Origin: Methylocystaceae bacterium
GTDB taxonomy: Bacteria > Pseudomonadota > Alphaproteobacteria > Rhizobiales > Beijerinckiaceae
Assembly: GCA_009773555.1 (NCBI GenBank)
Contig: WSXZ01000021.1
Location: 574 to 64,573 of the forward strand
Reading direction: 5' to 3'
DNA length: 64,000 nt
Below, one piece after another: positions 11,051-60,798 of this stretch. The translations under genes and the position numbers were made by a program. The notes under the pieces were generated by a model. It saw nothing but the letters and a program-made list of their open reading frames with translations. It made no database searches and was not told the origin of the DNA. Position 1 is the first letter of the stretch. Each line of letters starts with the position of its first letter.

Positions 11051-11062
11051 GCGTGTCCTGCT

Positions 11063-11740
11063 TCACCACGGAATATCCTCGCCGCGGTAGTCGAGATAGC
11101 GGCGCGTGTCGGCGAGGGTCAGCGACTCGGCGACACGAATGATTCCGGCCACGCTGTCGCGCACGTCGAGCTTGGCGTCCGGTCCGCCCATGTCGGTGCG
11201 CACCCAGCCGGGATGCATCGCGACGACAATGACGCGCTCCGTCTTCAGATCGGCGGCGAGACATTGCGCGATCTTGTTCAGCCCCGCTTTAGACACGCGG
11301 TAGGCGACATTGAATGTCCCCTCGAGCGACATCGAGCCGAGTATGCTCGACATCATGACGATGCGAGGACGCGCGCCGCGTTTTATCAGCGGCAGAAAGG
11401 CCTGGACGACGCGCAGCGGGCCCAGCGTATTGACCGAGAGAAGATCGAGCGCGCCTTCGAAATCCATATCGATGGAGGATTGGCGCTGCGGCCCATAGGC
11501 GCCGGCGTTGACGATGAGCGCGTCGATAGGATCGGTAACCTGCGCGGCGGCGGCCTCGATCTCGGCCTCATTGCGAACGTCGAACTGCAGAATTGCCGCC
11601 TGAGGCGCGGCCGCTTTCAGCGCCGCCGCTCCCACCGCGCTGCGCACGCTCGCGGTCACGCGCTCCCCTCGCGCTGAAAGCTGACGCGCAGCCTCCAATC
11701 CAATGCCGCGGCTCGCGCCGGCGATGAGCCAATGGGACAT
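11063..11740 (-). CDS. SDR family oxidoreductase
   Basis: Cofactor motif GASRGIG and catalytic YRVSK (YxxxK). Confidence 0.85.
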   Translation of the reverse strand: MSHWLIAGASRGIGLEAARQLSARGERVTASVRSAVGAAALKAAAPQAAILQFDVRNEAEIEAAAAQVTDPIDALIVNAGAYGPQRQSSIDMDFEGALDLLSVNTLGPLRVVQAFLPLIKRGARPRIVMMSSILGSMSLEGTFNVAYRVSKAGLNKIAQCLAADLKTERVIVVAMHPGWVRTDMGGPDAKLDVRDSVAGIIRVAESLTLADTRRYLDYRGEDIPW

Positions 11741-11872
11741 GTCTTATCCACCCGCATTCTGAAATCGATCTCTTATTGCTGGTTCTTAATATAGCGTCGA
11801 TACGGCGCGGGACAGGCTTGCCCAAGGTCATGTGGCGGTGCAGTATTCTCCCCGTTCAAGGGGGCTTTTTTC

Positions 11873-13033: not shown

Positions 13034-13037
13034 CTGC

Positions 13038-14102: not shown

Positions 14103-14108
14103 CCCTTT

Positions 14109-14996: not shown

Positions 14997-15251
14997 AAGT
15001 CCCTCCTGACGAACCCCCTGAGTTAAGGCGGGTCCGCGAAGCGCGGCCACAAAACGCCGGCCGCGACAGGGGGACATTATAGGGCGCCCCTAGTGGGCTG
15101 GAAAATGACAATTGCGTGAAGGGACGCTAAAGCACGGATTAAGATTCAGCAATGTGAATGACGCGTTTTCAGAGGCTCGGCCGCGCAAGTTTGCCGCGCA
15201 AGATTGGCGAAGATTCTGCCCGTTATGATTTCGCGATCTTCTGGCGAGAAT

Positions 15252-16769
15252 TCACTTCGACATGCCGCCCAGCACGCCGCGCAGAATTTGGCGCGCGATC
15301 TGTGTTCCGGCGGACCGCGCCGCCGATTGAATCGCGGCGCGCGCCGCAAGTTCCGCAGTCGACATGCGCTTCTTGTCGCCCTTGCCAAAAATGCCGCCCA
15401 ATATGCCGCCGAGCGCGCCGAGCAGACCGCCGCCCGCGCCGCTTTCAGCCTCGCCCTTGACGGCGCGCGCCTGCAGCATTTCGAATGCGGATTCGCGATC
15501 GACCATCGTGTCGTATTTTCCACCAAAGGCGCTCGCGGCCATCACGGCCTTCCGCTCCTGCGGCGATATCGGTCCCACGCGGGCGGACGGCGGCGCGATC
15601 AACGTGCGTTCGACGACTTCGGGCGTTCCCTTGGCGTCGAGCATCGACACCAGCGCTTCGCCGACTCCAAGCTGCATGATCGCCTCGGCTTCCTCGAGGG
15701 CGCGATTGTCGCGAAACGTCTCCGCGGCGGCGCGCACCGCCTTCTGATCGCGAGGCGTGAAGGCGCGCAGCACATGTTGAATGCGATTGCCGAGCTGGCC
15801 CAGAACCGTGTCCGGCACGTCGAGCGGATTTTGCGTGATGAAATAGACGCCGACGCCTTTGGACCGGATCAGGCGCACGACCTGCTCGATCGCGGACAGC
15901 AGCGCCTTCGGGGCGTCGGTGAACAGAAGATGCGCCTCGTCGAAGAAGAACACGAGCTTCGGCTTATCGAGATCGCCCACTTCCGGCAGGGCTTCGAACA
16001 GCTCGGAAAGCATCCAAAGAAGGAAGGTGGCGTAGAGCCGCGGCGCGCGCATGAGCTTGTCCGCGGCGAGGATATTGATCACGCCGCGGCCGTCGCGATC
16101 GACTCGCAGGAAATCCATGATGTCGAGCGCCGGCTCGCCAAAGAAACTTGCGCCGCCCTGCGTCTCCAGCACCAACAGCTGCCGCTGAATGGCGCCGACG
16201 CTCGCTGGCGCAACATTTCCGTATTTCTGTTTGTAGGCTGCGGCGTTCTCCGCAACATGCGCGAGCATCGCCCGCAAATCCTTCAAATCGAGCAGCAACA
16301 TGCCCTGCTCGTCCGCAACCCTGAAAACGACATTCAGAACGCCCTCTTGGACGTCGTTCAAATCGAGCAGGCGCGAAAGAAGCAGCGGCCCCATTTCCGA
16401 GATCGAAGCCCGAACCGGGTGTCCCTGTTCGCCAAAAACGTCCCAGAAGGCGACGGGAAACCGGTCGGGCTCGTAGAGAACGCCAATCTCCTTGGCGCGT
16501 GCGACGAAGGCCGACTTGCCTTCGCCCGGCTGCGACAGGCCGGCAAGATCGCCTTTGACGTCGGCGAGAAAGACGCAAGTTCCGGCGTTCGAGAAGCCTT
16601 CGGCAAGCCGCTGCAGCGAAACGGTTTTGCCTCCGCCGGTTGCGCCCGCGATCAAGCCATGACGGTTGCCAAGCGCGAGCAGAAGGTAGTTGTAAGCGCG
16701 CGGCTTCCCGTCCTTCACGCTTGCGCCGACGAGGATTTTGTCGGGAACGGCGCTCGGAGTTTCGCTCAT
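15252..16769 (-). CDS. DUF853 / YjgR-like HerA-type P-loop NTPase
   Basis: Walker A GATGGGKT, Walker B-like VFFFDEAH, and a Gly/Ala-rich C-terminal tail. Confidence 0.8.
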
Positions 16770-47407: not shown

Positions 47408-48847
47408 TCAGTGCAACGCCTGCGCTGCTCTTGAATCGCTGGGAGCCAGCCTCTCGTCCCCCTCCGATGCGCGCGGCAGGAACACGCGCGCGATCAGTCC
47501 GTGGGGTTCGCGGTCGAGCAGAGACACGGATCCGCCGTGGTTCTCAACGAGCGAGCGCACGATAGATAGCCCCAATCCAAATCCGCTGTGCTCGTCAAGG
47601 GTTCGTCCGGGCTGACCGCGAACGAAAGGCTCGAATGCGGTCTGCTTGCTTTCCGCTGACATTCCTGGCCCGTCGTCGATGACGTCGACCTGTATCAGTC
47701 CTTCCGGCCGATCGGTCAGAAGCACGTCCACTGTCTTCGCGTGATGCGTGGCGTTCTCGACGAGATTGGTAAAAATGCGCTGCATGTCGGGGAGCGATCC
47801 GAAAACCATTTGGCGTCCGCCGCCATGGTAGGTCACATGATGCCCAAGGTCGCAGAACTCGTCGGCGACAGTTTGCAGAACGCTGTCGAGATCGACCAGG
47901 GAACAGTCGGATTTGTCGTCTCCCTCGGCGCGCAAATACTGAAGGTTCTTGAACAGCATTGCGTCCATGAGATCGACGTCGCGCATCATCCGCTGCTGAA
48001 GGTTTTGATCTGGCACGAACTCCGTTTTCAGCTTCAAGCGCGTGATGATCGTACGCAAGTCGTGACTCACCGCCGCAAGCACATGGGCGCGCGCGGCGAT
48101 CATCTTGCTGATGCGCGCCTGCATGCGATTGAGCGAGCGGGTCAATTCGCGAACTTCCTGGGGACCTCGCTCCGGGAGCTGCGCTTTCGGATCGACATCG
48201 TTCGGAATCTGCTCAGCATATTTTGCCAGTCGTCGCAGCGGCGCCATGATCGCGTTCAGCGCCCAGAACACGAAGATCGCTGTGAATATGATAAAGGACA
48301 GGGCCGTTCGCGCGCCCTGAGTCAGGATAAACGGTTCGTCATCGGCATGCTGCCAAAGCCATCGCCATATCGAACCGGGAGATTTTTGATGCTCGGCGAT
48401 TGAGACCGTCGCATAGCCGCCCTTATGCAATTCGACAGCGAGGACGCCGTAATCTTCAGGCGTTGAATTGTCGACCTTGAACACGTCTGCGCCGTTCCAC
48501 AACAGCGAGTCGATGTGACGAATTTCATTGTCAAAGGCGAGATCGCCGCCGCCCGTCGAAGAATTCGCCGCCGGAGGGCGCGCCTCCTGAATCTCGATAC
48601 TGGCGTAGGGAACGGCGTGAGAGAGCGCTGAAATGACATTGGCTCTCTCCGAGAGCGGCGCGACGTCCAGAGCGAGGATTATGCTCGCGATGAAATCGCC
48701 TTGATCGACAATGTGCCGCCGGCCGAACACATGGAACATGCCGATCACGATCGTTTGGAATGCGACGATGGACACAAGCATGAGCAGCGTAATCTGCACG
48801 GCCAGTTTGTTGAGCCGGAACCGCCAGGGAACGCGAGTTGAGTTCAT
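47408..48847 (-). CDS. Sensor histidine kinase (two TM helices, HAMP, HisKA, HATPase_c)
   Basis: H-box SHDLRTIITRL, N-box NLVENATHH, G2 box GFGLGLSIV. Confidence 0.85.
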   Translation of the reverse strand: MNSTRVPWRFRLNKLAVQITLLMLVSIVAFQTIVIGMFHVFGRRHIVDQGDFIASIILALDVAPLSERANVISALSHAVPYASIEIQEARPPAANSSTGGGDLAFDNEIRHIDSLLWNGADVFKVDNSTPEDYGVLAVELHKGGYATVSIAEHQKSPGSIWRWLWQHADDEPFILTQGARTALSFIIFTAIFVFWALNAIMAPLRRLAKYAEQIPNDVDPKAQLPERGPQEVRELTRSLNRMQARISKMIAARAHVLAAVSHDLRTIITRLKLKTEFVPDQNLQQRMMRDVDLMDAMLFKNLQYLRAEGDDKSDCSLVDLDSVLQTVADEFCDLGHHVTYHGGGRQMVFGSLPDMQRIFTNLVENATHHAKTVDVLLTDRPEGLIQVDVIDDGPGMSAESKQTAFEPFVRGQPGRTLDEHSGFGLGLSIVRSLVENHGGSVSLLDREPHGLIARVFLPRASEGDERLAPSDSRAAQALH

Positions 48848-49578
48848 GCGCGCGTGACCTGCGTGGAAAAGATATAGCCTTCGGACCGCACGGTCTGGAT
48901 GAACGCGGGCTTTCTCGGATCCGTTTCGATCTTCTGTCGAAGCCGGCTGATCAGGACGTCAATGCTCCGCTCAAAGGGACCGGTCGTTGGGCCATGCGTC
49001 ATGTTGATCAGTTGCTCGCGCGTCAACACCCGATGGGGATTTTCGCACAAAGCATGCAACAGATCGAATTCGGCGCCGGTCATGGCCACCTTTATGCCGC
49101 ACGGCGCGACGACCTCCCGAGCCAGCACGTCGACGCGCCAGCCGGAGAAAAGATACGCTTGCCGCATCGCGCGCCCGTCGACGGCGCTGGGTGTTTCAGT
49201 TCGCCTCAGCACCGCGCGAATGCGCGCCAGCAGCTCGCGCGAATTGAAGGGCTTAACAATGTAGTCGTCGGCCCCGAGCTCCAGCCCCAATATTTTATCG
49301 ATATCCTCCGATTGCGCGGTCAGTATGATTATTGGAATGCGTCTCTCGGCGCGCATACGCCGGCAAATGGAGAATCCGTCTTCGCCGGGAAGATTAAGAT
49401 CCAGTATCAACAGGTCGTAGACGCCGGCGCTGAACGCCGCGTCCATTTCCTTGGCGTTTGCGGCGACCTTCGTCTGAAGGTCGTGACCCGCGAGATAAAG
49501 CGAAATGAACTCGCCGATTTCGGCGTCATCCTCGACGATCAGAATTGAAATGGGAGACGCCACGGGTCGCGCGATCAC
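48844..49578 (-). CDS. OmpR/PhoB-family response regulator
   Basis: Receiver ILIVEDD...LLILDLNLPGEDG and a winged-helix C-terminus IQTVRSEGYIF. It overlaps the kinase gene by 4 bp. Confidence 0.9.
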   Translation of the reverse strand: MIARPVASPISILIVEDDAEIGEFISLYLAGHDLQTKVAANAKEMDAAFSAGVYDLLILDLNLPGEDGFSICRRMRAERRIPIIILTAQSEDIDKILGLELGADDYIVKPFNSRELLARIRAVLRRTETPSAVDGRAMRQAYLFSGWRVDVLAREVVAPCGIKVAMTGAEFDLLHALCENPHRVLTREQLINMTHGPTTGPFERSIDVLISRLRQKIETDPRKPAFIQTVRSEGYIFSTQVTRA

Positions 49579-49610
49579 TTTCGTTGGGAGGAGCGGAAAC
49601 TAATAATGCA

Positions 49611-49628
49611 GTGTTTCTAGAGTGTTTC
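49611..49628. promoter_or_regulatory. Candidate response-regulator binding site: 7-4-7 direct repeat
   Basis: GTGTTTC-TAGA-GTGTTTC with 11-bp periodicity, in the divergent region between the RR/HK operon and the SulP operon. Confidence 0.4.
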
Positions 49629-49820
49629 CATCACAAAAACGATTGCGCCCCGCGACGATTCCGCAGCTCTGTCCGATCTCGTCCGATTTGAGAAAAGAAT
49701 CAGAAACAATCTCCGTGGTCTGAAAAACTGGAGAAACACCACGGCCACTGGTCTGTCCTATGTTGCGACCGCTAAGGGGTGCGCCAAGGTTTCGACTGAG
49801 CGCGATGGCAAGGACACCAT

Positions 49821-51614
49821 ATGAAAAGCAAGGCTCATGCTGTCACCCGCGACCTGGAAGCGGACGCGGTTGAGGCAAGCGCCTCTCAGCGCGCCGGGTC
49901 ATCGGCGCAAGACGAATGGCTGGGCAAGGACCTAGGCGGACCCGCCATGGATGAGAATCGCTCAAATTTCGCAGGGACGATTCCAACCCGGTTCACGCCG
50001 AAAACCGGCCTCGCCGGATTGGCCGAAAATTGGCGCGCCGATATTCTGTCCGGCTTTCTGGTCTTTCTTATCGCGCTGCCGCTCTGCCTCGGCATTTCGA
50101 TGGCCTCCGGCTTTCCGCCGCAGGCGGGCATCATCACCGCCGTCGTTGGCGGCCTGCTGGTGTCACGAATCAATGGCTCCTTCGTCACCATCACCGGACC
50201 GGCGGCGGGCCTCATCGTGGTCATTCTGGACTCGGTGCAGGCGCTCGGCGACGGCGACGCCAAAGCCGGCTACCACTACACCTTAGCCGCGATTGTATGC
50301 GCCAGCGTCATCCAGATGCTGATGGGCGTCATGAAGGCCGGCAAGATGAGCGCCTTTTTTCCGTCCTCGGCCGTGCATGGCATGTTGGCGGCGATCGGCA
50401 TCATCATTATGGCCAAGCAGATCCACGTCATGCTGGGCGTGAAGCCGGATGCGCAGACTCTGTTTGAGACGATCGGCGCAATCCCCGCAAGCATTCGCGA
50501 CATGAATCCAGAAGTGGCGATTATTGGCGGCCTTGGGCTTTTGATCCTGATCGCCTGGTCGCTGGTGAAGAGTCGCCGACTGAAAATGATCCCGGCGCCG
50601 CTCGTCGTCGTGATCATCGGCATGGCGCTCGCGCAATATTACGATCTCGACGATGAACATATCTATCTCTTCCTGCCGGACTATCCGTTTCTGCCGCATC
50701 ACGAATTCACGATCGGTCCGAAGTTTCTTGTCTCGATTCCGCAGAACTTCCTCTCCGGCTTCGCCTTCCCGGATTTCTCGCTGATCGGCTCCAGCATATT
50801 CTGGCAGCAGGTCTTCGCCATCTGTCTCGTCGGCAGCCTGGAGAGCCTGCTCAGCTCGGCGGCGGTCGATAAGCTCGACCCTTGTAAGCGCACCTCGGAT
50901 CTCAACCGCGACCTCGCGGCGGTCGGCTTCGGCAACATCATCTGCGGCCTGATTGGCGGTCTGCCGATGATCGCAGAAATCGTCCGCAGCTCCGCCAATG
51001 TGAATAATGGCGCGCGCACAGGATGGGCGAATTTCTTCCATGGATTGTTCCTGCTGATCTTCGTCGCCCTCTTCCCGAGGGTCATTCACGAGATCCCGCT
51101 CGCCGCGCTTGCCGCGCTGCTGGTGTTCACCGGCTACCGACTCGCGTCGCCGCTCGAGTTCAAGAAGACGCTGGCGATCGGCTGGGACCAGCTCACCGTT
51201 TTCGTGATCACCATCGTCGGCGTGCTGGCGACCGACCTGCTGATCGGCGTCGCCATCGGCATCGCCGCCGAGTTCCTGTTCCACTTCTGGCGCAGCGTCA
51301 ATTGGGGACAGATCTTCAAGCTGCATCGCGACATCGTGGAGATCGAGCCCGGCGTCTACGAGGTCAAGATCGGCGGCGCCGCGTTTTTCGCCAATTACCT
51401 CGCGCTCAAGGGCGATCTCGTGAAGCTCCCGAAGGGCAAGAAGATCATCTTTGATCTCTCAGAGTCCTGGTGCGTCGATCATACGGTGATGGAGAACCTC
51501 CATCACTTTTGCGAGGACTATGAAGCAAACGGCGGCCGCGCAGAGATTTGCGGACTGGATCAACACGTCGCGACGTCAAAGCATCCCCTCGCCCCGCGCA
51601 AGCGCAGCGTCTAG
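49821..51614 (+). CDS. SulP family inorganic anion transporter with C-terminal STAS domain
   Basis: ~12 hydrophobic segments and a SulP-like N-terminal region LAENWRADILSGFLVFLIALPLCLGISMASG. The C-terminal STAS-like domain reads KIIFDLSESWCVDHTVMENL. Confidence 0.85.
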   Translation: MKSKAHAVTRDLEADAVEASASQRAGSSAQDEWLGKDLGGPAMDENRSNFAGTIPTRFTPKTGLAGLAENWRADILSGFLVFLIALPLCLGISMASGFPPQAGIITAVVGGLLVSRINGSFVTITGPAAGLIVVILDSVQALGDGDAKAGYHYTLAAIVCASVIQMLMGVMKAGKMSAFFPSSAVHGMLAAIGIIIMAKQIHVMLGVKPDAQTLFETIGAIPASIRDMNPEVAIIGGLGLLILIAWSLVKSRRLKMIPAPLVVVIIGMALAQYYDLDDEHIYLFLPDYPFLPHHEFTIGPKFLVSIPQNFLSGFAFPDFSLIGSSIFWQQVFAICLVGSLESLLSSAAVDKLDPCKRTSDLNRDLAAVGFGNIICGLIGGLPMIAEIVRSSANVNNGARTGWANFFHGLFLLIFVALFPRVIHEIPLAALAALLVFTGYRLASPLEFKKTLAIGWDQLTVFVITIVGVLATDLLIGVAIGIAAEFLFHFWRSVNWGQIFKLHRDIVEIEPGVYEVKIGGAAFFANYLALKGDLVKLPKGKKIIFDLSESWCVDHTVMENLHHFCEDYEANGGRAEICGLDQHVATSKHPLAPRKRSV

Positions 51615-51674
51615 TCCGTAAAGTTCACGCAGGGCGCGACCGACGACCGTCGCGTCGAATCGAAGGTGACACGT

Positions 51675-53672
51675 ATGCCGCTCTACCTGGCGCTGACCTC
51701 TGTCAGCGCCCTGCTCGCCGTCGGCGTCTACGCCATCGTCGACAGGCGGAACCATGACGTCAGCCGCAACGTCTACCGCCTGTGCATCGGCCTCTGCGGC
51801 GTCATCTTTCTCGCAGCGGTCATGCCAAGGGGCGCTCATGTCGTTTCCACGACTTTGCCGCTCGGGCTGCCGTGGATCGGCATGCATTTTCGCATCGACG
51901 TCCTGACCGCCTTTTTCCTCGCCGTCGTCAATCTGGGCGGCGCGGCGGCGAGCGCCTATGCGATCGGCTATGGCGCGCATGAGAAGGAGCCGATGCGCGT
52001 GCTGCCGTTCTATCCAGCCTTTCTCGCTGGCATGAACCTCGTCGTGCTGGCCGACGACGCCTTCACCTTTCTCGTCGCTTGGGAGTTCATGTCGCTTGCG
52101 TCATGGGCGCTCGTGCTGACGCATCATCATGAGGAGGAGAACAGGCGCGCCGGCTTCGTCTATCTGTTGATGGCGAGCTTCGGCGGGTTTGCGCTGTTGA
52201 TGGCGTTCGGCGTTCTCGGCGGCGTCGGCGGCGCCTATGACTTCGCCTCGATTCGCGAGTCGACTAAGGCGGGCTGGACCTCGGGCCTCGTCCTGGCCCT
52301 CGCGTTAATCGGCATGGGGTCGAAAGCCGGACTCGCGCCCCTGCATATCTGGTTGCCGCTCGCCCATCCCGCGGCGCCGAGCCATGTCTCGGCCCTGATG
52401 AGCGGCGTTATGACGAAGGTCGCCGTCTACGGCTTCATTCGCGTCGTGTTCGACTTGCTCGGGCCGCCGGCCTTCTGGTGGTCGGTCGAGCCGATGACCT
52501 TTGGCGCGGCGAGCGCCCTCATCGGCGTTCTCTTCGCGACGATTCAGAGCGATTTGAAGAAGCTGCTCGCCTACAGCACTATCGAAAACATTGGCGTCAT
52601 TTTCATCGCGCTCGGACTCGCCTTGGCGTTCAAGGCCAATGGCATGGCGCTGCCGGCCGCGCTCGCCTTCACGGCGGCGCTCTTTCACGTTTTCAATCAT
52701 TCGCTGTTCAAGAGCCTGCTGTTCTTTGGCGCCGGCGCGGTATTGAATGCGAGCGGCGAAAGAAGCATCGAGCGGCTCGGCGGTCTTATCCACGCCATGC
52801 CGAAAACGGCGTTCCTTTTTCTCGGCGGCTGCGTCGCCATCGCCGCCCTACCGCCGCTGAACGGTTTCGTCTCGGAATGGCTGGTCTTTCAGGCGATCCT
52901 GCTGAGCCCGGCGCTGCCGCAATGGACAGTGAAGCTCCTCGTTCCGGCGGTCGGCGTGGCGCTGGCGCTGAGCGCGGCGCTCGGCGCCGGCTGTTACATA
53001 CGCGCCTATGGCGTCGCTTTTCTGGGGCGTCCCCGCAGCGAAGCGGCGCGCAGGGCGCACGACCCGGATCGCTGGTCGCTCGGCGCTATGGCGGTTTTGC
53101 TGACGCTGTGCCTCATCGCCGGTCTGCTGCCGAGCCTCCTCATCGACACGATCTCACCCGTGGCGAAGGATTTTGTCGGCGCCCGCATGCCGACGCAGGC
53201 CGAACTCTCCTGGCTCTCGATCGCGCCGATCGCCGAAAGCCGCAGCTCCTATAATGGGCTTCTGGTCTTCCTGTTCATTCTCTTCTCCGCCTATTCGGCG
53301 AGATGGGTCATCCACAAATTTGGCGCGACGCGGTCGCGGCGCGCGCCGGCGTGGGACTGCGGCTACATCGAAGCCAGCCCCATGACCCAATACACCGGCA
53401 GCAGCTTCGCGCAGCCGATCCGGCGCACCCTTGGCGTCATCGCCTTTTCGGTGCAAGAGCGCCTCGACATGCCGGCGCCCGGCGATACGCGGGCCGCGCG
53501 CCTCAGCGTCGACATCAAGGATCGAATCTTCGACTATCTCTATGCGCCGCTCACGCGGGCGGTGGAATCTTGCGCCGAGCGGCTGAACGTCCTCAGTCTT
53601 ATGACGATCCAGGAATATCTCGCGCTCGTTTTCGCCGCGCTCGTCTTCCTCCTGGTGCTGGTGGCGATATGA
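51675..53672 (+). CDS. HyfB/NuoL-like antiporter-type membrane subunit
   Basis: ~665 aa and polytopic, with a proton-pumping-subunit-like core (WEFMSLASWALV, LPLAHPAAPSHVSALMSG). GAAGG lies 8 nt upstream of the ATG. Confidence 0.85.
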   Translation: MPLYLALTSVSALLAVGVYAIVDRRNHDVSRNVYRLCIGLCGVIFLAAVMPRGAHVVSTTLPLGLPWIGMHFRIDVLTAFFLAVVNLGGAAASAYAIGYGAHEKEPMRVLPFYPAFLAGMNLVVLADDAFTFLVAWEFMSLASWALVLTHHHEEENRRAGFVYLLMASFGGFALLMAFGVLGGVGGAYDFASIRESTKAGWTSGLVLALALIGMGSKAGLAPLHIWLPLAHPAAPSHVSALMSGVMTKVAVYGFIRVVFDLLGPPAFWWSVEPMTFGAASALIGVLFATIQSDLKKLLAYSTIENIGVIFIALGLALAFKANGMALPAALAFTAALFHVFNHSLFKSLLFFGAGAVLNASGERSIERLGGLIHAMPKTAFLFLGGCVAIAALPPLNGFVSEWLVFQAILLSPALPQWTVKLLVPAVGVALALSAALGAGCYIRAYGVAFLGRPRSEAARRAHDPDRWSLGAMAVLLTLCLIAGLLPSLLIDTISPVAKDFVGARMPTQAELSWLSIAPIAESRSSYNGLLVFLFILFSAYSARWVIHKFGATRSRRAPAWDCGYIEASPMTQYTGSSFAQPIRRTLGVIAFSVQERLDMPAPGDTRAARLSVDIKDRIFDYLYAPLTRAVESCAERLNVLSLMTIQEYLALVFAALVFLLVLVAI

Positions 53673-54622
53673 CCCTTCTTTTCAACCTTATGGCGCAGAG
53701 CCTTCAAATGCTTTTGGTGCTTGCGCTGGCGCCGCTGCTGATCGGCTTCGTTCGAAAGCTGAAAGCGCGTCTCTTGCGCCGTACAGGGCCGCCGATCATT
53801 CAGCCCTGGCTCGATCTCATTCGGCTGCTGCGCAAGGAGGTCGTCCTCGCGGACAACGCATCGTGGCTGTATCGCGCCGCGCCCTATCTGATCTTTGCGA
53901 TGATCTGGGTCGCCGCATCGCTGGTGCCGACATTCGCCACCGGACTGACGTTCAGCTGGTCGGCCGATCTCATCGCCATCATCGCCCTGCTCGGCAGCGC
54001 CCGTTTCTTCCTTGCTCTCGCCGGCATGGACATTGGAACGAGTTTTGGCGGCATCGGCTCCAGCCGCGAGGCGATGTTCGGCTCGCTCGCCGAGCCGGCG
54101 ATGATGATGATCGTCTTCACCGTCTCCTTCGTCGCCGGAACGACGCAGCTCTCTGAAATTGCGGCCTATATGGCCGGAAATCTGGAATTGCGCGCCTCCG
54201 TCGGCATGGCGCTCGTCGCGCTCCTCATCGTCGCCATCGCAGAGAATGGTCGGATTCCCGTCGACAATCCGGCGACCCATCTCGAGCTGACGATGGTGCA
54301 TGAAGCGATGGTTCTCGAATATTCCGGGCGCTATCTCGCGCTCATTGAACTCGCCTCCGCGCTCAAACTGCTCCTTTATCTCTCGCTCATCGCCTGCGTC
54401 TTTTTCCCGGTTGGACTAGCGTCGCATGATGCGGGCGTGGAGGCGATGATGATCGGGCTTTGCGCTTACATCCTCAAGCTGGCGATCGGCGGCGGCGCGC
54501 TCGCGCTGTTTGAGACATCGACCGCCAAGATGCGCATCTTCCGCGTGCCGGACTTTCTCGGCGCCGGGCTGATGCTCGGCCTCCTCGCGACGCTGCTCGT
54601 TTTCGTGACACGGAGCCTCTGA
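53669..54622 (+). CDS. HyfC/HycD/NuoH-like membrane subunit
   Basis: ATGA overlap with the upstream gene. The 317-aa polytopic product has a NuoH-like pattern (GPPIIQPWLDLIRLLRKE). Confidence 0.85.
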   Translation: MTLLFNLMAQSLQMLLVLALAPLLIGFVRKLKARLLRRTGPPIIQPWLDLIRLLRKEVVLADNASWLYRAAPYLIFAMIWVAASLVPTFATGLTFSWSADLIAIIALLGSARFFLALAGMDIGTSFGGIGSSREAMFGSLAEPAMMMIVFTVSFVAGTTQLSEIAAYMAGNLELRASVGMALVALLIVAIAENGRIPVDNPATHLELTMVHEAMVLEYSGRYLALIELASALKLLLYLSLIACVFFPVGLASHDAGVEAMMIGLCAYILKLAIGGGALALFETSTAKMRIFRVPDFLGAGLMLGLLATLLVFVTRSL

Positions 54623-55284
54623 TGGAGCTTCTGACAATCGACATCGCCCATGTGCTCGCGGGTGCGCTCCTGCTGACGAGCTTCATGCTGCTGTATCAGG
54701 ACAGACTGTCGGGGCTGATCAATATCTACACGCTCCACGCCGTCATTCTGTCGCTGTCGGTCGCCTGGCAGGCCTATTACCAGGACGCGCCGCACCTCTA
54801 TTTCACAGCTTGCATCGCGGCGGTCTTCAAGGCGCTAATCATTCCCTTCAGCCTTCGCCGCATCATCAAGCGCTTGCGCATCCACCGCACCGTGGAGGTC
54901 GTTGGCGGCGTCGGCATAACCATGCTCATCGGCATATTTCTCGTGGCGCTGTCGCTCGTCGTCATGCTGCCGGCGACCGCCTCCGCCGATCCGCTGTCGC
55001 GCGAGGACATCGCATTCGCCTTGGCGATCGTGCTGCTCGGGCTGTTGATGATGGTGACGCGACGCAACGCCGTGAGCCAGATTATCGGTTTCATGTCGCT
55101 GGAAAACGGCTTGATTCTCGCAGCGGCTGGGGCGAACGGCATGCCGCTCGTGGTCGAGATCAGCGTCGCCTTCTCGGTCCTCATCGCCTTCATCGTGATC
55201 GGCATCTTCCTGTTTCGCATCCGCGAGCGATTCGACAATGTCGACCTTTCTGAACTCGATCGCGTGCGCGGAGGACGTTCATGA
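54622..55284 (+). CDS. HyfE-like (NuoK-related) membrane subunit
   Basis: TGATG overlap with the upstream gene. The product is 220 aa and hydrophobic (GFMSLENGLILAA). Confidence 0.8.
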   Translation: MELLTIDIAHVLAGALLLTSFMLLYQDRLSGLINIYTLHAVILSLSVAWQAYYQDAPHLYFTACIAAVFKALIIPFSLRRIIKRLRIHRTVEVVGGVGITMLIGIFLVALSLVVMLPATASADPLSREDIAFALAIVLLGLLMMVTRRNAVSQIIGFMSLENGLILAAAGANGMPLVVEISVAFSVLIAFIVIGIFLFRIRERFDNVDLSELDRVRGGRS

Positions 55285-56729
55285 GTTCCGATCTCTTGCT
55301 GGTCTCGAACGCGCTTATTGGCATTCCCGCCGCCGCGGCCATTGCGGTCGCGCTTGAACCGGCCTACCGACGCTCGGCGATCATCAATCTCTGCGCCTCC
55401 GGCGCGACGTTTCTCTTCGCGCTTGTGCTTCTCGTCGTCGAGCCCGAAAGCGGTGGCTATCTCTTCGTCGACGACCTCAACATCGTCTTTATTGTGCTCT
55501 CGACCTTCATCGGGTTCACCACGAGCGTCTATAGCGCGAGCTATATCGACCATGAGCTGGAAACTGGCCGGCTGACCACGAGGAACGTGCGCTTCTATCA
55601 CGCGATGTATCAGTCGCTGATGTGCGCGATGAATCTGGCGCTGCTCGCCAGCAACATCGGCCTCATGTGGGTCGCGGTCGAAGTCGCAACCCTGACGACC
55701 GTGTTGATGGTCGGCATGTACCGCACGCCGCACGCGCTTGAGGCCGCTTGGAAATATTTCATCCTTGGCAGCGTCGGGATCGCGCTGGCGCTCTTCGGCA
55801 CGATCCTCATTTACATGGCGGCCGAGCCGGTGCTGGGACAGGGCTACGACGCCATGGTCTGGACGACGCTGATGTCGCAGGCGCCGCAGTTCAATCCGCG
55901 GATGCTCAACGTCGCCTTCGTGTTTCTGATGCTCGGCTACGGCACGAAGGTCGGCCTGGCGCCGATGCACGCCTGGCTGCCGGACGCGCACGCGGAAGGT
56001 CCGACGCCGATCTCGGCGGTCTTGTCCGGCCTCCTGCTGAATGTCGCGCTCTATGCGGTGCTGCGGTTCAAGATGCTGCTGACCGCGAATGCGGCGGCGA
56101 TTACGCCGGGCCCGCTGATGATCACGCTCGGCCTTGCATCGCTCATCATGGCAGCCTTCATGCTCTACCGCCGCGGCGACATCAAGCGGCTGTTTGCTTA
56201 CTCCTCCATCGAGCACATGGGCATCATCGCTTTCGCCTTCGGCATGGGCGGACCGCTCGCCAACTTCGCCGGCCTGCTGCACATGACGATGCACAGCCTG
56301 ACGAAGTCCGCGATCTTCTTCTCGGTCGGCCACATCGCACAGGCCAAGGGCACGCAGAAGATCGCCGACATCAGAGGACTGACGCAGAGCCATCCGGCGC
56401 TGGGCTGGTCTCTCGTCCTCGGCGTCGTGGCGATCATCGGCCTGCCGCCGCTCGGTATCTTCATGAGCGAATTTCTCGTCGTGAGTTCGACCTTCGCGCG
56501 CCAGCCGCTCCTCGCCATTCCGCTGGTTTTCGGCCTGCTGCTGGCTTTTGGCGCCTTGCTGTTGCGGCTCACCGGGATGGCGTTCGGCGAGCCAAGCCGC
56601 GACCACGGCGAGGTGAAGGCTTCGATGTGGCCTGTCTACGCGCATCTCTCGCTTGTGCTGCTCGCCGGAATCTATCTCCCGTCTCACGTCGTGACCTGGT
56701 TCCAGAACGTCGCGCGGCTCTTGGGTTGA
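55281..56729 (+). CDS. HyfF/NuoM-N-like antiporter-type membrane subunit
   Basis: 482 aa with GYGTKVGLAPMHAWLPDAHAEGPTPISAVLSG, typical of the Mrp/Nuo antiporter-like family. GGAGGA Shine-Dalgarno sequence. Confidence 0.85.
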   Translation: MSSDLLLVSNALIGIPAAAAIAVALEPAYRRSAIINLCASGATFLFALVLLVVEPESGGYLFVDDLNIVFIVLSTFIGFTTSVYSASYIDHELETGRLTTRNVRFYHAMYQSLMCAMNLALLASNIGLMWVAVEVATLTTVLMVGMYRTPHALEAAWKYFILGSVGIALALFGTILIYMAAEPVLGQGYDAMVWTTLMSQAPQFNPRMLNVAFVFLMLGYGTKVGLAPMHAWLPDAHAEGPTPISAVLSGLLLNVALYAVLRFKMLLTANAAAITPGPLMITLGLASLIMAAFMLYRRGDIKRLFAYSSIEHMGIIAFAFGMGGPLANFAGLLHMTMHSLTKSAIFFSVGHIAQAKGTQKIADIRGLTQSHPALGWSLVLGVVAIIGLPPLGIFMSEFLVVSSTFARQPLLAIPLVFGLLLAFGALLLRLTGMAFGEPSRDHGEVKASMWPVYAHLSLVLLAGIYLPSHVVTWFQNVARLLG

Positions 56730-56746
56730 GTTCGAAGGATGAAAAG

Positions 56747-58264
56747 ATGAACTTCGCCAGCAAACAAATAGCGGCTCAGCCGTCGCCGCCGACATGTCTG
56801 CCCTGGCCGCGTGAAATCGTCGACCGAGACGGTTGGCTCGCTTTCGCTGAAAGTCTTGCGAAGGGCGCGCGCGAGCTCCTCAGCCTGTGGGGCGAACCTT
56901 CGAGCGTTCACATGGCGGTGCTCGAAGAGCGGGAGCCGCGCCTGCGCATCGTCAGTTTGGAGTGTCCCGAGGGCTCCTTTCCATCCGTCGGGCGATTGCA
57001 TCCGCCGGCGTTGAGACTCGAGCGCGCGATCCGCGATCTTTATGGCCTGCGAGCCGAAAATGCGCCCGACGAGCGGCCCTGGCTCGATCATGGCCGTTGG
57101 GGCGTGCGTCATCCCTGCAGCGACCCCGAAAAGATCGACTCCACCAAAGACAGCTACGCATTCCTTCCCGCCGAAGGCGAACCGCTCCACCAGATACCGG
57201 TCGGACCCGTGCATGCCGGCATTATCGAGCCGGGCCATTTTCGTTTCTCGGCCAATGGCGAAACCGTCGTGCGGCTTGAGGAGCGGTTTGGCTTCGTGCA
57301 CAAGGGCGTCGATCAACTGATGGCCGGCGCCTCGATCGAGCGCGCCGCGCGTTTGGTGGCGCGCGTGTCCGGCGACAGCACGGTCGCCTACAGCCTCGCC
57401 TTTGCGCAGGCGGTCGAGGCGGCGTTCGACGTCAATGTTCCGCCGCGCGCGACATATCTGCGCGCGCTGATGGCCGAACTGGAACGAATCGCCAATTATT
57501 TCGGCGATATCGGCGCCATCTGCAACGACGCGGCCTTCGCATTGATGCATGCGCAATGCGGCATCGTCCGCGAACGCATCTTGAGAGAAGCGGCAAGTTG
57601 CTTCGGACACCGCCTGATGATGGATCGCATCGCGCCGGGAGGCGTTGTCGTCGATCTGGAGCGAGAGAACGTCACGGCGCTGTTCACGCTGATCGAGTGG
57701 ATCGAGCTGATGACTCCGCGCCTGATCGCGCTCTTTGGCGACACGACGTCGCTGCAGGATCGGACCGTCGGGACAGGATACGTCAGTGAGGCGCTCGCAA
57801 AGCAATATGCGTGCGGAGGCTATGTCGGCCGCGCCTCCGGCCGGACGTTCGACGCGCGCAAGGCGATCGGTTACGCCCCCTATCCGCAACTGACCTTCGA
57901 GATCGGCTGCTCCAAGGAAGGCGACGTCGATGCGCGCGTATGGGTCCGCTTCGACGAAATCAAAGCCTCGCTGAGACTCCTCAGACAAATTCTCGACGAA
58001 ATGCCGGAGGGACCGATCATCGCCGCCTGGGCGCTGCCGGAAGACTGGACGCGCGAAGGCGCGGCGCTCGTCGAAGGATTCCGCGGCGACATCTTCGTTT
58101 GGCTGCGCATGCGCGCTGACGGCGTGGTGCAGCGCTGCCATTTGCGCGATCCGTCCTGGTTCCAATGGCCGCTGCTCGAAGCGGCGATCAAGGACAACAT
58201 CGTCGCCGACTTCCCGCTCTGCAACAAATCCTTCAACTGCTCCTACTCGGGGCACGATCTCTAG
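56747..58264 (+). CDS. HyfG/HycE/NuoCD-like 'large subunit' lacking Ni-Fe ligand cysteines
   Basis: VGPVHAGIIEPGHFRF is conserved. The N-terminal CGxC site reads ARVSGDSTVAYS, and the C-terminal DPCxxC site reads SFNCSYSGHDL. Confidence 0.85.
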   Translation: MNFASKQIAAQPSPPTCLPWPREIVDRDGWLAFAESLAKGARELLSLWGEPSSVHMAVLEEREPRLRIVSLECPEGSFPSVGRLHPPALRLERAIRDLYGLRAENAPDERPWLDHGRWGVRHPCSDPEKIDSTKDSYAFLPAEGEPLHQIPVGPVHAGIIEPGHFRFSANGETVVRLEERFGFVHKGVDQLMAGASIERAARLVARVSGDSTVAYSLAFAQAVEAAFDVNVPPRATYLRALMAELERIANYFGDIGAICNDAAFALMHAQCGIVRERILREAASCFGHRLMMDRIAPGGVVVDLERENVTALFTLIEWIELMTPRLIALFGDTTSLQDRTVGTGYVSEALAKQYACGGYVGRASGRTFDARKAIGYAPYPQLTFEIGCSKEGDVDARVWVRFDEIKASLRLLRQILDEMPEGPIIAAWALPEDWTREGAALVEGFRGDIFVWLRMRADGVVQRCHLRDPSWFQWPLLEAAIKDNIVADFPLCNKSFNCSYSGHDL

Positions 58265-58276
58265 GACGCGCGCACG

Positions 58277-58792
58277 ATGCAGAAATTCTTGCTTCAAGGC
58301 CTGCTTCGGCGCGCTCTGACCGAACAGGCTCCCATTCCGAACCCGACGTCGATCGCGGAACTTGGCTACACGCTCGGCCGGACGGCGCGCCAGAAACTGG
58401 GACGCAGCCTGTCGATCCGCGAAGTCGACGCGGGGTCCTGCAATGGCTGCGAACTGGAAATACATGCGCTCAACAACGCCTATTACGATCTCGAAAGGTT
58501 CGGCCTGCGTTTTGTCGCGTCGCCGCGCCATGCCGACGTCTTGCTCGTCACCGGTCCGGTGACGAAAAACATGCGCGAAGCGCTCGAGCGAACCTATGCG
58601 GCGACGCCCGATCCAAAATGGGTGATCGCCGTCGGCGACTGCGCCTTCGACGGCGGCGTTTATTGCGAGAGCTATGCATGCGTTGGCGGCGTCGCCAACG
58701 TCGTCCCTGTCGATCTCCATATTCGCGGCTGCCCGCCTGATCCCACAACGCTGCTCAAAGGATTGATCGCCTTCGTCGACACGATGAGCTGA
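58277..58792 (+). CDS. HyfI/HycG/NuoB-like small subunit (4Fe-4S)
   Basis: Cluster ligands are retained: GSCNGCELE, GDCA, GCPP. Confidence 0.85.
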   Translation: MQKFLLQGLLRRALTEQAPIPNPTSIAELGYTLGRTARQKLGRSLSIREVDAGSCNGCELEIHALNNAYYDLERFGLRFVASPRHADVLLVTGPVTKNMREALERTYAATPDPKWVIAVGDCAFDGGVYCESYACVGGVANVVPVDLHIRGCPPDPTTLLKGLIAFVDTMS

Positions 58793-58817: not shown

Positions 58818-58854
58818 ATGGCCGCCGCCTGAAACATGGTGGCGGCCATTTTTG
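58818..58854 (+). terminator. Rho-independent terminator ending the SulP/Hyf-like operon
   Basis: 12-bp stem atggccgccgcc / ggtggcggccat with an 8-nt loop, followed by TTTT. Confidence 0.8.
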
Positions 58855-59049: not shown

Positions 59050-60798
59050 ATGAATCTCCCAGGCTGGAAGCATGTCGCGGCAAGCGGGCTTGTCGCGGTT
59101 CTCTCGACAACAGCGGCGCATGCGGCGTCAAGCGACGCCATCGAAGCAAGGCTGCGCACCCTGGAGGCGGAGATCGCAAAACTGCGGCGAGAGGCTCGTC
59201 AGGCGAAGGCGGAAGCCCAGCAGGCGACTCAGTCCGCTCAACGAAGCGCGGCGAAGGCCGAGGCGGCGCAATCCGCGACGCCGCTGATGCCGCCGGTTTT
59301 CGTCGCATTCAGGAACGGATTGTTCGTCGAGAGCGCGGACAAAGCCTACAGTTTCAAGATCGGCGGACGCATGCAGTTCGACGGCGGCGGCGCGGCGCAA
59401 CCGCTCAATGGCTGGTCAGGCCAGGCCGGCGTTCGGCAGGTGCGTCTCGAAGTCGAGGGCAAGGCTGCAAAATACTGGTTCTACAAACTGCAATATGATT
59501 TCGCCGGCTCGCAATATGGCACGCCCTTCAATGCGCCCGTGCAAGGCGGCATTCGCGACTTCTATCTTGGTCTGCAGCATCCCCTGCTCGCGCTGCCTTT
59601 TACGAAGGAGCCGGCGTTCATCCATATCGGCAGCTATTTCGAACCCTTCAGCCTGGAGTTCACGGCTTCTTCGCGTTTCCGTGATTTCATCGAACGCGCG
59701 ATGGCGGTCGAAGCCATTGCGCCCAGTCGTCACCTTGGCGCGGCGATCGGCGCCTATGGCGACAACTGGACGGCGAAAGGCGGCATCTTCACGACAAGCT
59801 TCGAGGATTTGAACACGAATCCCGTCGTCAGCACGCCGCCGTTGATCGGCATTCCGGCGCGCGCCGGTTGGGTCCCAACGGGCGGCGGGCAATATTTCGA
59901 ACTGACCGGCCGCGCGACCTACGCGCCGATCATGACCGAGCATGATCTCCTGCATGTCGGCGTCTCGGGCCGCTATCACCAGCCAAACAGCGCCACGGGA
60001 TTATCCGACGATCGCGTGCTGCGGATCGGCAACCGCATTCGCTCGGAAGCCTATATGCTCAATCAGGGGCTGCTTGGCACGCCGGATCTTTCCTGCGGAA
60101 CCGTCGCTCTACCGGGATGGACGTCGGCGGCCGCGGCGCATTGCGTCAACAACGTGCAGTCCTTTGGCGTGGAGCTGTCCGCGGCGCATGGGCCGTTCTC
60201 GCTGCAGGCCGAATATCTGGGGCAGCAGGTCAATCGCAACACCACCAATATCGCGCTCGCGCGCGTCGCAGGCGCTTTCGCGCCTGGCGGCGCTTCGCAT
60301 TATTTCAGCGGCTTTTATCTCTACGGGCAATGGTATCTGACCGGCGAAGAGCGCGCCGCCGCATATGACGTGACGAACAAACTCGGCGCGAACTTCAATC
60401 AGATCGCGATCAAGCATCCGATGAGCGCGGGCGGCTTTGGCGCACTTGGGCTCGCCGTGCGCTACAGCGCGCTCAATCTCAACAGCGGACCCTATAGCGG
60501 CTCAAGCCTGTACAACATGCTCGCCTATACGACGCTCATCGCGCCCAATCCCGCGGCCGCGTCTTACATCGGCAACGCGGGCGTTGTCGGCGGTCGCCAG
60601 CAAAACGTCACTCTGGGACTGAATTGGTATCCCGACAATGGAATCCACTTTCAGTTCAACTGGGTCCATGTGCTGCAGGCCTCCGCGCCGTTCAATGATT
60701 ACGCTTTGTACGCCACTGGCGTTCCGGCGCGGCAAGGGCCGTATTTCAACGGCGCCCATCCCGATCTCTTCGAGGCGCGCGCGCAGGTCTATTGGTAG
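59050..60798 (+). CDS. OprO/OprP-family (phosphate/anion-selective) porin with N-terminal coiled coil
   Basis: Signal peptide ...STTAAHAAS and the coiled coil IEARLRTLEAEIAKLRREARQAKAEAQQ. Beta-barrel-like alternating pattern, ending in an aromatic residue (QVYW). Confidence 0.75.
   Translation: MNLPGWKHVAASGLVAVLSTTAAHAASSDAIEARLRTLEAEIAKLRREARQAKAEAQQATQSAQRSAAKAEAAQSATPLMPPVFVAFRNGLFVESADKAYSFKIGGRMQFDGGGAAQPLNGWSGQAGVRQVRLEVEGKAAKYWFYKLQYDFAGSQYGTPFNAPVQGGIRDFYLGLQHPLLALPFTKEPAFIHIGSYFEPFSLEFTASSRFRDFIERAMAVEAIAPSRHLGAAIGAYGDNWTAKGGIFTTSFEDLNTNPVVSTPPLIGIPARAGWVPTGGGQYFELTGRATYAPIMTEHDLLHVGVSGRYHQPNSATGLSDDRVLRIGNRIRSEAYMLNQGLLGTPDLSCGTVALPGWTSAAAAHCVNNVQSFGVELSAAHGPFSLQAEYLGQQVNRNTTNIALARVAGAFAPGGASHYFSGFYLYGQWYLTGEERAAAYDVTNKLGANFNQIAIKHPMSAGGFGALGLAVRYSALNLNSGPYSGSSLYNMLAYTTLIAPNPAAASYIGNAGVVGGRQQNVTLGLNWYPDNGIHFQFNWVHVLQASAPFNDYALYATGVPARQGPYFNGAHPDLFEARAQVYW

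Follow-up and report, generated by a model that had tools for sequence, protein, structure and literature searches.

A SulP anion transporter gene joined to a hydrogenase-4-like membrane complex without nickel-iron ligands: a candidate inorganic carbon uptake module of methanotrophs

We analyzed a 64,000-nucleotide stretch of DNA (the window) from a Methylocystaceae bacterium (assembly GCA_009773555.1, contig WSXZ01000021.1, positions 574 to 64,573). It carries seven adjacent genes on one strand, sulP-hyfBCEFGI, in which a gene for a SulP-family anion transporter is followed by those for a six-subunit membrane complex (the cassette). Judged by its sequence, this complex is a descendant of the group-4 hydrogenases and is related to respiratory complex I. 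Its large subunit lacks all four of the Ni-Fe cysteines, and the complex is therefore predicted not to be a hydrogenase; the cysteines are exchanged for a near-invariant polar pocket (Ser-Gly-Asp-Ser/Thr and Asn-Lys...Asn-x-Ser-Tyr-Ser-Gly). The linkage between this particular SulP and the cassette recurs in both alpha- and gammaproteobacterial methanotrophs, where the same SulP orthologue group also adjoins genes for the DabAB inorganic carbon pump. We put the chance at about even that the region encodes a regulated, envelope-spanning uptake module for an anion, most likely inorganic carbon, of a Methylocystis-like methanotroph. The features of the operon are as follows.

49821..51614, plus strand: sulP, opening the operon; anion transporter of the SulP/SLC26 family whose C-terminal STAS domain is weak (Pfam Sulfate_transp, E=1.3e-60)
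51675..53672, plus strand: hyfB-like, antiporter-like subunit of the NuoL/MrpA class, 665 amino acids (NCBIfam NF005086 'hydrogenase 4 subunit B', 831 bits against a cut-off of 667; Pfam Proton_antipo_M)
53669..54622, plus strand: hyfC-like, NuoH/HycD-like membrane subunit (Pfam NADHdh, E=4.3e-38)
54622..55284, plus strand: hyfE-like, small membrane subunit with a NuoK-like C-terminus (NCBIfam NF008556, 87 bits, below the cut-off of 136; weak Pfam Oxidored_q2)
55281..56729, plus strand: hyfF-like, antiporter-like subunit of the NuoM/N class (NCBIfam NF005043, 841 bits against a cut-off of 533)
56747..58264, plus strand: hyfG-like, large subunit, a NuoC and NuoD fusion without Ni-Fe ligands (assigned with Pfam)
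58277..58792, plus strand: hyfI-like, NuoB-family small subunit (Pfam Oxidored_q6, E=7.5e-34)
58818..58854, plus strand: intrinsic terminator, a hairpin (58818-58849) followed by a U-run, which closes the operon

The seven open reading frames (ORFs) stand at these coordinates in the ORF listing of the window and were assigned by Pfam and NCBIfam profile searches, in which NCBIfam scores were judged against curated cut-offs; no gene of the operon remains unassigned. A first-pass annotation, made from the sequence alone, had described sulP followed after about 60 bp by six tightly packed hyf genes with overlaps at 53669, 54622 and 55281, and the junctions, read directly, bear this out. hyfB and hyfC overlap by ATGA (53669-53672), hyfC and hyfE by TGATG (54620-54624), and hyfE and hyfF by ATGA (55281-55284); spacers of 17 and 12 nucleotides precede hyfG and hyfI, respectively, and 60 nucleotides separate sulP from hyfB. 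The terminator that had been placed at 58818..58854 is equally well founded, with a folding free energy of -39.3 kcal/mol (z = -4.3) that none of 200 shuffled sequences equalled, and weaker terminator-like sites occur within the operon at chance frequency (10 found, 9.9 expected). The sulP-hyfB spacer lacks a T-run and is no more stably folded than shuffled sequence (z = +0.63), leaving no terminator between 51614 and 51675. Given this short spacer without a terminator, and a conserved gene order, sulP-hyfBCEFGI is likely to be one transcription unit, as had been proposed. A scan for a sigma-70 consensus upstream of sulP gave no match. Rfam returned no riboswitch or RNA leader between positions 47000 and 61000 of the window at E-values up to 1, and nothing at gathering score in seven related loci.

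Twelve proteins of the Escherichia coli hyf operon were used as tblastn queries against the whole window, and homologues were found of HyfB, C, E, F, G and I only. The HyfD query matches just the HyfB- and HyfF-like genes and a separate hyfD is therefore absent; HyfA, HyfH, HyfJ, HyfR and FocB gave no match in the 64 kb. The annotated lack of a subunit of the HycF/HyfH/NuoI type and of HyfD is thus confirmed for the window, and no NuoI/HyfH-like or HyfA-like gene was called in the homologous Methylocystaceae and gammaproteobacterial loci either. A formate dehydrogenase partner was not found near the cassette, in searches that included no dedicated model for formate dehydrogenase or hyp genes.

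The large subunit sets the complex apart from hydrogenases. In these enzymes two motifs, RxCGxCxxxH near the N-terminus and DPCxxCxxR/H near the C-terminus, bind nickel and iron. The best solved relative of the HyfG-like protein is HycE of formate hydrogenlyase (7Z0S_E, E=2e-47), and in that alignment RVCGICGFAH of HycE falls on RVSGDSTVAY of the window protein, and DPCYSC on NCSYSG. The four ligand positions are Ser208, Ser211, Ser499 and Gly502, by alignment to HycE as well as to E. coli HyfG, which has cysteine at each of them. The signature motifs of the protein read R-V-S-G-D-S (206-211) and C-N-K-S-F-N-C-S-Y-S-G-H-D-L (492-505). In a MAFFT alignment of 107 family members with E. coli HyfG the new pocket is nearly invariant, both in its N-terminal half (S208 and G209 in 106 of 107 sequences each, D210 in all 107, serine or threonine at 211 in 105) and in its C-terminal half (N493 and K494 in all 107, N497 in 106, S499 in 103, G502 in 105). 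The protein ends in ...SYSGHDL, which corresponds to the mature end of E. coli HyfG; the latter runs 33 residues further, and the C-terminal extension that is the substrate of HycI/HyfK-type maturation proteases is missing. Of the hallmarks of a group 4 [NiFe]-hydrogenase, the class '4f' of HydDB included, the window has the small subunit for the proximal [4Fe-4S] cluster and lacks both CxxC motifs of the large subunit, the C-terminal extension, and, of the maturation and accessory genes expected nearby, a HyfJ homologue. The first-pass description of a cysteine-less, Ehr-type relative of hydrogenase-4 therefore holds for the four ligand positions. However, it does not hold for the complex at large: Cys492 remains nearby and is conserved, Cys498 is conserved within the clade of the window protein, and the small subunit keeps four [4Fe-4S] cysteines.

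All 95 small subunit sequences compared carry these four (C55, C58, C122 and C152) without exception. In addition, alignment to MbhH (6CFW_H) and MbsH (6U8Y_H) indicates that the HyfF-like subunit keeps the glutamate of transmembrane segment (TM) 5, the lysine of TM7 and the glutamate of TM12 that are typical of NuoM and MbhH. The strictly kept polar pocket, together with one Fe-S cluster and intact ion-pathway residues, indicates a working machine of altered chemistry rather than a decayed one. When the large subunit is aligned to Thermus Nqo4 (2FUG_4), whose quinone-binding residues are H38 and Y87, the histidine and tyrosine positions are occupied by I160 and G209, so the canonical quinone site of NuoD is absent. 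The window likewise holds no HyfH/NuoI- or HyfA-like sequence that could supply the 2x[4Fe-4S] subunit and the electron-input module of NDH-1. The complex does have the properties by which Ehr complexes are defined, which are relatedness to group-4 hydrogenases, loss of the Ni/Fe-binding residues, and subunits resembling Mrp antiporters (PMC6349859).

To place the module among its relatives we surveyed the cassette and the transporter separately (surveyed loci carry L numbers). Scanning one genome per species, we obtained 80 cassette loci, with large subunits that share 55-64% identity with that of the window. Their hosts include Bradyrhizobium, Mesorhizobium, Rhodopseudomonas, Azospirillum, Xanthobacteraceae, Competibacter, Chromatiaceae and Acidobacteria, among others. 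The order hyfBCEFGI is kept throughout. In the 56 loci with enough upstream DNA, clustering of the flanking ORFs brought up no recurrent formate dehydrogenase, carbonic anhydrase, ferredoxin or hyp gene; the sole recurrent neighbor is a small XRE-type regulator of about 106 amino acids. This XRE/HTH_31-type gene lies next to hyfB, upstream in 17 and downstream in 9 of the 56 (in L022, for example, at 4530-4850). It also occurs at L088 4492-4770 and L090 9269-9586, and is probably the regulator of the cassette outside methanotrophs. Three loci from alphaproteobacterial metagenome-assembled genomes (MAGs) carry a tandem pair of HyfB-like genes ahead of hyfCEFGI (L018 2891-6848, L032 2967-6816 and L037 2994-6816).

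The complete string sulP-hyfBCEFGI is present in five Methylocystaceae lineages, namely that of the window and relatives whose large subunits are 86%, 76%, 71% and 65% identical to it. The outer flanks of the five loci differ, and the first four of these lineages keep a two-component system and a porin beside the module. An identical large subunit occurs in the Methylocystaceae MAG GCA_009773015.1, and the closest named relatives are Methylocystis species. In further matches hyfG and SulP share a longest contig of equal size (in some cases 11.6-16.4 kb), and so are probably on the same contig in at least 12 further lineages. The copy of M. heyeri and a second, degenerate copy of M. bryophila belong to a sister paralogue that has the XRE gene and no SulP.

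In GCA_009773015.1 the hyfB gene is split into two called ORFs, 225 and 424 amino acids long (L082 4042-5993), where the window has one gene for 665; the split is a frameshift or assembly error in the MAG. In Methylocystis sp. ATCC 49242 (L087 14471-18170) the kinase, regulator, sulP, cassette and porin adjoin replication genes of the parA/repB/repC type and a resolvase, so this module is probably plasmid-borne and mobile. A search of a plasmid collection with the whole operon gave only short matches of 71-77% identity on replicons of Rhizobium, Azospirillum and Sinorhizobium, mostly unannotated. The degenerate copy of M. bryophila (AP027149.1; L090 10001-12037) retains only the genes for the large and small subunits, preceded by an HTH_31 gene and a 124-amino-acid ORF; in the same genome the complete, SulP-linked copy (L089) is some 20 kb away.

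The transporter was followed with a metagenome scan using a SulP alignment, which gave 80 loci of 53-97% identity, 53 of them with at least 3 kb beyond the gene. A cassette is linked to SulP in 29 of these 53: directly downstream in 24, downstream with intervening genes in two, and upstream on the same strand in three. The majority of the linked cassettes are far more divergent, sharing only about 40-45% identity with the HyfB and HyfG of the window. In a neighbor-joining tree of HyfG rooted on the E. coli protein, the divergent cassettes form the sister clade to all others, and the Methylocystis SulP-linked group is nested inside a clade that otherwise has no SulP. The divergent clade carries the same signature, RVSGDT...CNKS(L/V)NGSYSG(N/H)DL. 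Exact-sequence look-ups and a homologue search place its named relatives in Methylobacter, Methylovulum, Methylomonas, Methyloprofundus, a methanotrophic endosymbiont of mussels and Methylococcaceae MAGs. SulP itself is better conserved than the complex, its orthologues in Methylocystis and in gammaproteobacterial methanotrophs (Methylococcales) reaching 72-100% identity. Cassette-linked and stand-alone genes are interspersed in the SulP tree.

Several gammaproteobacterial loci (L111, L121, L122, L155, L118 and L126) have two SulP paralogues in tandem, with identities to the window protein of about 65% and about 56%; the pair stands ahead of the cassette or alone (in L122 at 10001-11614 and 12234-13829). 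In Methyloprofundus sedimenti (L174 12958-19168) an ATPase operon of the N-type (atpD-atpC-gene1-...) lies 2.4 kb downstream of the sulP-cassette operon. Such N-ATPases are thought to export Na+ or H+, and this neighbor may bear on the ion used. In Methylomonas albis (L175) a 120-amino-acid ORF of unknown family (4438-4800) overlaps the start of hyfB, and a Na+/H+ exchanger gene (1552-2751) is found 1.7 kb upstream on the opposite strand.

Clustering of the neighbors of the apparently stand-alone SulP genes from the metagenome scan connected the transporter to inorganic carbon. The recurrent neighbors are a kinase (12 loci), a sigma-54 regulator (11 loci) and an antiporter-like protein of about 623 amino acids (five loci). 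The last proved to be DabB, with a gene for DabA (PF10070, E=7e-223 and 8e-226) lying between dabB and sulP. In total, dabAB adjoins the orthologous sulP in eight loci, whose named relatives are Methylicorpusculum, Methylovulum, Methylosoma and Methylomonas. In L109 sulP (9998-11689), dabA (11714-14347), dabB (14344-16227), hyfB (start between 16277 and about 16600, end at 18460) and then hyfC, hyfE and hyfF follow one another on a single strand, with overlaps or spacers of about 50 nucleotides or less up to the end of the fetched stretch. All three systems also meet in L153, where hyfEFGI is followed by dabB-dabA on the opposite strand and then by sulP. DabAB is an energy-coupled vectorial CO2 hydratase, or inorganic carbon pump, coupled to membrane potential (PMC13144422). 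For Methylococcus capsulatus, the working model of bicarbonate import invokes a SulP protein encoded in one operon together with a beta-carbonic anhydrase (PMC11423575). The repeated strings of sulP, dabAB and cassette therefore place the cassette among genes for inorganic carbon acquisition. The analogy to CO2 and bicarbonate uptake drawn in the first-pass annotation is strengthened by this arrangement. The window itself does not encode a DAB pump, as it has no match to DabA and its HyfB matches DabB weakly.

The SulP of the window has the architecture of the SulP/SLC26 family, in which a STAS domain comes after the Sulfate_transp membrane domain. Its STAS domain scores only 20.9 bits, under the Pfam cut-off of 22.6, and in many of the orthologues the domain is detected. 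The protein also stays below the cut-off of the TIGR sulP model. Curated models and solved structures assign it no substrate, every match being below cut-off or distant.

Genes for accessory functions flank the operon on both sides, and they comprise the following features.

47408..48847, minus strand: EnvZ-like sensor histidine kinase, divergent from the operon (Pfam HAMP and HATPase_c; best NCBIfam match EnvZ, 169 bits, below the cut-off of 415)
48844..49563, minus strand: OmpR-family response regulator, 239 amino acids as called in identical public contigs (L081 2098-2817) (Response_reg and Trans_reg_C; best NCBIfam match OmpR, 233 bits, below the cut-off of 331)
49564..49820, no strand: divergent control region with GAAAC/GTTTC repeats at 49595-49600, 49613-49617, 49624-49629, 49702-49707, 49722-49728 and 49732-49737
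59050..60798, plus strand: OprO/OprP-family (Porin_O_P) outer-membrane anion porin in a separate transcription unit (Pfam PF07396, E=4e-37)

The histidine kinase is conserved beside the module, and Porin_O_P directly 3' of the cassette, in four Methylocystis lineages. The repeats of the control region are laid out as GGAAAC...GTTTC...GTTTCC (49595-49629) and AGAAAC-N14-GAAAAAC-N3-AGAAAC (49702-49737). The second block is common to all five aligned Methylocystis upstream regions, with an invariant CAGAAACA...GAAAAA...GAAA. The repeats are candidate sites for the OmpR-like regulator, and the EnvZ/OmpR-like pair probably controls the operon. In the 86%-identical relative, genes for a bestrophin-like anion channel and an LCM methyltransferase directly follow the porin (L084 14699-16290); in the lineage of the window the same two genes lie a few kb further on (L081 18338-20060), about 1 kb past the 3' end of the window. 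In algae, bestrophins serve the CO2-concentrating mechanism as bicarbonate channels.

Gammaproteobacterial loci have other parts in the same roles. A DUF2490 protein instead of Porin_O_P is found beside the module in eight clustered loci as well as in L174 and L176, and the regulator consists of a kinase and an NtrC-type regulator rather than an EnvZ/OmpR-like pair. In agreement with the adjacent NtrC-type regulator, a sigma-54 element of the -24/-12 type is present upstream of sulP in 62 of 85 loci, compared to a background of 10.6% in random windows. In most matches (L091-L176) it is located 60-100 nucleotides before the conserved part of sulP. Nearly all gammaproteobacterial loci have the element, whether sulP stands alone, before dabAB or before the cassette; examples are TGGCACAATAATTGCA in L111 and, at 39 nucleotides, TGGCACACAAATTGCT in L154. 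The same functional layout is thus built from non-homologous parts in two lineages, which argues for selection on the whole ensemble of transporter, complex, outer-membrane protein and regulator.

In the uptake module that we favor, the OprP-type porin would let the anion across the outer membrane, and porin and SulP together would bring in bicarbonate by symport with H+ or Na+, SulP being the putative bicarbonate transporter. We infer the substrate, the direction of transport, the source of energy and any contact between SulP and the complex from these arrangements. The complex might re-export the H+ or Na+ on which SulP (and DabAB) would draw, with electrons entering at the single Fe-S cluster. 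Alternatively, it might tie ion movement through its antiporter-like subunits to the trapping of CO2 as bicarbonate, similar to DabAB and NDH-1/Cup. A bolder form of the latter, which we regard as improbable, is that the complex itself is a third kind of energy-coupled inorganic carbon pump after NDH-1/Cup and DabAB. The former gas channel of the hydrogenase and the re-modelled polar pocket would then hydrate CO2, or else it would be the membrane arm that deals with bicarbonate and protons, powered either by the membrane potential or by electrons that enter at the single [4Fe-4S] cluster. If true, this would give a function to a complex I relative of many aerobes, including Cupriavidus, Bradyrhizobium and Rhodopseudomonas.

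Expression of the family has been reported in a 2025-26 preprint on Methylocystis sumavensis (bioRxiv 10.1101/2025.08.29.672306). There the genes are called a 'group 4f [NiFe]-hydrogenase (ehfA-F)' on the basis of HydDB, and the family is counted in 38 of 40 Methylocystis genomes. At pH 5 they are induced by log2 fold changes of +4.2 to +4.5 with no detectable H2, and formate dehydrogenases and efflux pumps are co-induced. The motifs given there, PLHQIPVGP...ANGExVVRL...AARVS, occur in HyfG of the window. Acid induction fits uptake of inorganic carbon because bicarbonate is scarce at pH 5.

A number of observations weigh against an inorganic carbon uptake module. SulP reaches 119 bits against the BicA model (NF050096, cut-off 880) and 190 bits against that of DauA (NF008660, cut-off 614), and thus scores as neither equivalog; its closest solved relatives, a fumarate transporter and BicA (6KI1, 81 bits), are both distant. 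The cassette has no carbonic-anhydrase-like subunit. For a porin of the OprP type, phosphate-like or other anions would be no less fitting than bicarbonate. Acid induction fits pH homeostasis equally well, and the acid-induced cluster of M. sumavensis may be of another type than the SulP-linked one. The adjacency of sulP, which the first-pass annotation had expected in relatives, extends to Methylocystis and to gammaproteobacterial methanotrophs (29 of 53 SulP orthologues). However, SulP is beside the cassette in none of the 56 informative loci of other bacteria, which are mostly Proteobacteria with a few Acidobacteria. Even within the divergent clade the linkage is overstated, as its loci were found through SulP and the figure is inflated by this sampling; of two divergent cassettes picked through HyfG instead, L176 has SulP and that of Methylomonas albis does not. 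In Methylumidiphilus and a second Methylococcaceae MAG, a SulP of 74% identity occurs on its own, and the genes after it encode a histidine kinase and a response regulator dependent on sigma-54.

Since each part occurs alone in close relatives, SulP and the cassette appear able to work independently. An obligate supercomplex of the two was set aside on these grounds, and the physical coupling that had been suggested at first is unlikely, with the cassette alone in most of its hosts.

These points give room to other explanations, one of which, though doubtful, is an acid- or anion-stress module. The complex would be a redox-driven H+ or Na+ pump that guards cytoplasmic pH, and SulP would carry some anion other than bicarbonate, be it formate, sulfate, chloride or, like DauA at acid pH, a C4-dicarboxylate, as an electrical shunt or for the disposal or uptake of an organic acid anion, with the EnvZ/OmpR-like sensor answering envelope or acid stress. 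The induction of homologues at pH 5 alongside formate dehydrogenases and efflux pumps in M. sumavensis, DauA as the best NCBIfam match of SulP, the EnvZ/OmpR-like regulators, the anion-selective type of the porin and the anion channel gene focB that likewise ends the E. coli hyf operon are all in line with it. In contrast, a bicarbonate-limited cell would be equally expected to show acid induction, no gene for formate dehydrogenase or organic acids recurs beside the module in any locus set, and DabA-DabB repeatedly adjoins SulP genes of this one orthologue group, which speaks specifically for inorganic carbon. It is unlikely that the adjacency reflects shared regulation or inherited gene order only, the cassette being a self-sufficient respiratory enzyme unrelated to SulP, such as a ferredoxin or flavodoxin:quinone oxidoreductase or its reverse. 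The invariant Fe-S ligands do suggest electron transfer, SulP too stands alone, and outside methanotrophs the cassette is by itself in 56 of 56 informative loci, amid variable neighbors and often with the XRE-type regulator. A quinone reaction is nevertheless hard to square with I160 and G209 at the histidine and tyrosine positions of NuoD. Moreover, two cassette clades that split deeply have acquired or kept the linkage, as have roughly half of the SulP orthologues, with short spacers, one upstream control region of the sigma-54 or OmpR type, and a cassette in line with dabAB.

That the complex is a genuine group 4f [NiFe]-hydrogenase or a formate hydrogenlyase, as annotated in public records and in the preprint, seems to us barely credible. 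The HydDB-based call of the preprint and the match to HycE speak for it. In contrast, the ligand cysteines are replaced almost throughout the 107 family members, the maturation extension is missing, HyfA, HyfH and HyfJ are absent from the window, no formate dehydrogenase recurs by the cassette in the locus surveys, and the preprint records no H2 despite strong induction.

Complexes of this kind, known as Ehr or 'incomplete hyf', are familiar though uncharacterized. New here are the methanotroph-wide linkage of sulP and cassette, the linkage to dabAB, the parallel replacement of accessory parts and the correction of the hydrogenase annotation. Group-4 relatives without the metal site are widespread in aerobes and routinely annotated as 'hydrogenase-4' or 'Ni,Fe-hydrogenase III', and counting the family among [NiFe]-hydrogenases overstates the hydrogen metabolism of these organisms. 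An operon shared with one particular SulP in alpha- and gammaproteobacterial methanotrophs, where this SulP alternatively or additionally pairs with DabAB, is the first testable clue to the role of a widespread orphan complex. Inorganic carbon supply matters to methanotrophs, and CO2 handling limits carbon conversion in methane bioprocesses. Serine-cycle methanotrophs build a large share of their biomass from CO2.

The nearest relatives with a described function are the hydrogenase-4 and formate hydrogenlyase of E. coli (HyfABCDEFGHIJ; HycBCDEFG, 7Z0S). The homologues of B, C, E, F, G and I have the same order, the large subunit is a fusion of the NuoC-NuoD type and the small subunit holds a proximal [4Fe-4S] cluster. 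Both operons also carry a gene for anion passage, the channel gene focB in E. coli and the transporter gene sulP in the window. In contrast to hydrogenase-4, the window complex has no Ni-Fe ligands, maturation extension, HyfA, HyfH (2x[4Fe-4S]), separate HyfD, HyfJ or HyfR, its subunits are only 29-40% identical, and its hosts are aerobic. The ehfA-F proteins of M. sumavensis belong to the same family as those of the window and are treated as a hydrogenase in the preprint, yet the metal ligands are missing; the portion of its text available to us describes no linkage to SulP, a porin or DabAB.

Among inorganic carbon systems, the cyanobacterial NDH-1MS and NDH-1MS' (NdhD3/F3-CupA) are complex-I-type machines that convert CO2 to bicarbonate and share a regulon with BicA and other bicarbonate transporters. 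NDH-1MS has a full NuoA-K/NdhI-S core, quinone reduction and CupA/CupS, none of which was found here, in searches that included no Cup model. BicA and the SulP of M. capsulatus have the SLC26/SulP fold and STAS domain in common with the window protein, which differs from the former in scoring far below the equivalog cut-off and from the latter in having no adjacent carbonic anhydrase. The DAB pump pairs an antiporter-like membrane subunit of the complex I type, as is present here, with a catalytic part in the cytoplasm. No DabA (PF10070) is encoded in the window, whose HyfB is 23% identical to DabB; the cassette shows no recognizable carbonic anhydrase fold, and its complex has six subunits including an Fe-S protein. 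However, DabAB takes the place of the cassette after the orthologous sulP, and once stands in the same gene string with it.

The literature searched gives the complex no function, in agreement with what the first-pass annotation had said of Ehr complexes, and does not mention its linkage with SulP; searches on H16_A2196-2201, Rmet_4666-4671 and hyf genes in methanotrophs returned remarks in genome papers only. A paper of 2010 pointed out hyfBCEFGI in Cupriavidus metallidurans CH34 and C. necator H16, called it an 'incomplete hyf operon' and considered a function in lithotrophy unlikely (PMC2864759). By that description it is the same six-gene set as in the window. Ehr is a catch-all label without assigned function, and other Ehr types have been proposed to partner formate dehydrogenase (PMC6349859). 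The complex described here falls within the Ehr definition, and is distinguished from other Ehr complexes by its recurrent partners, SulP, DabAB, an outer-membrane channel and a two-component system, which accompany it in methanotrophs only.

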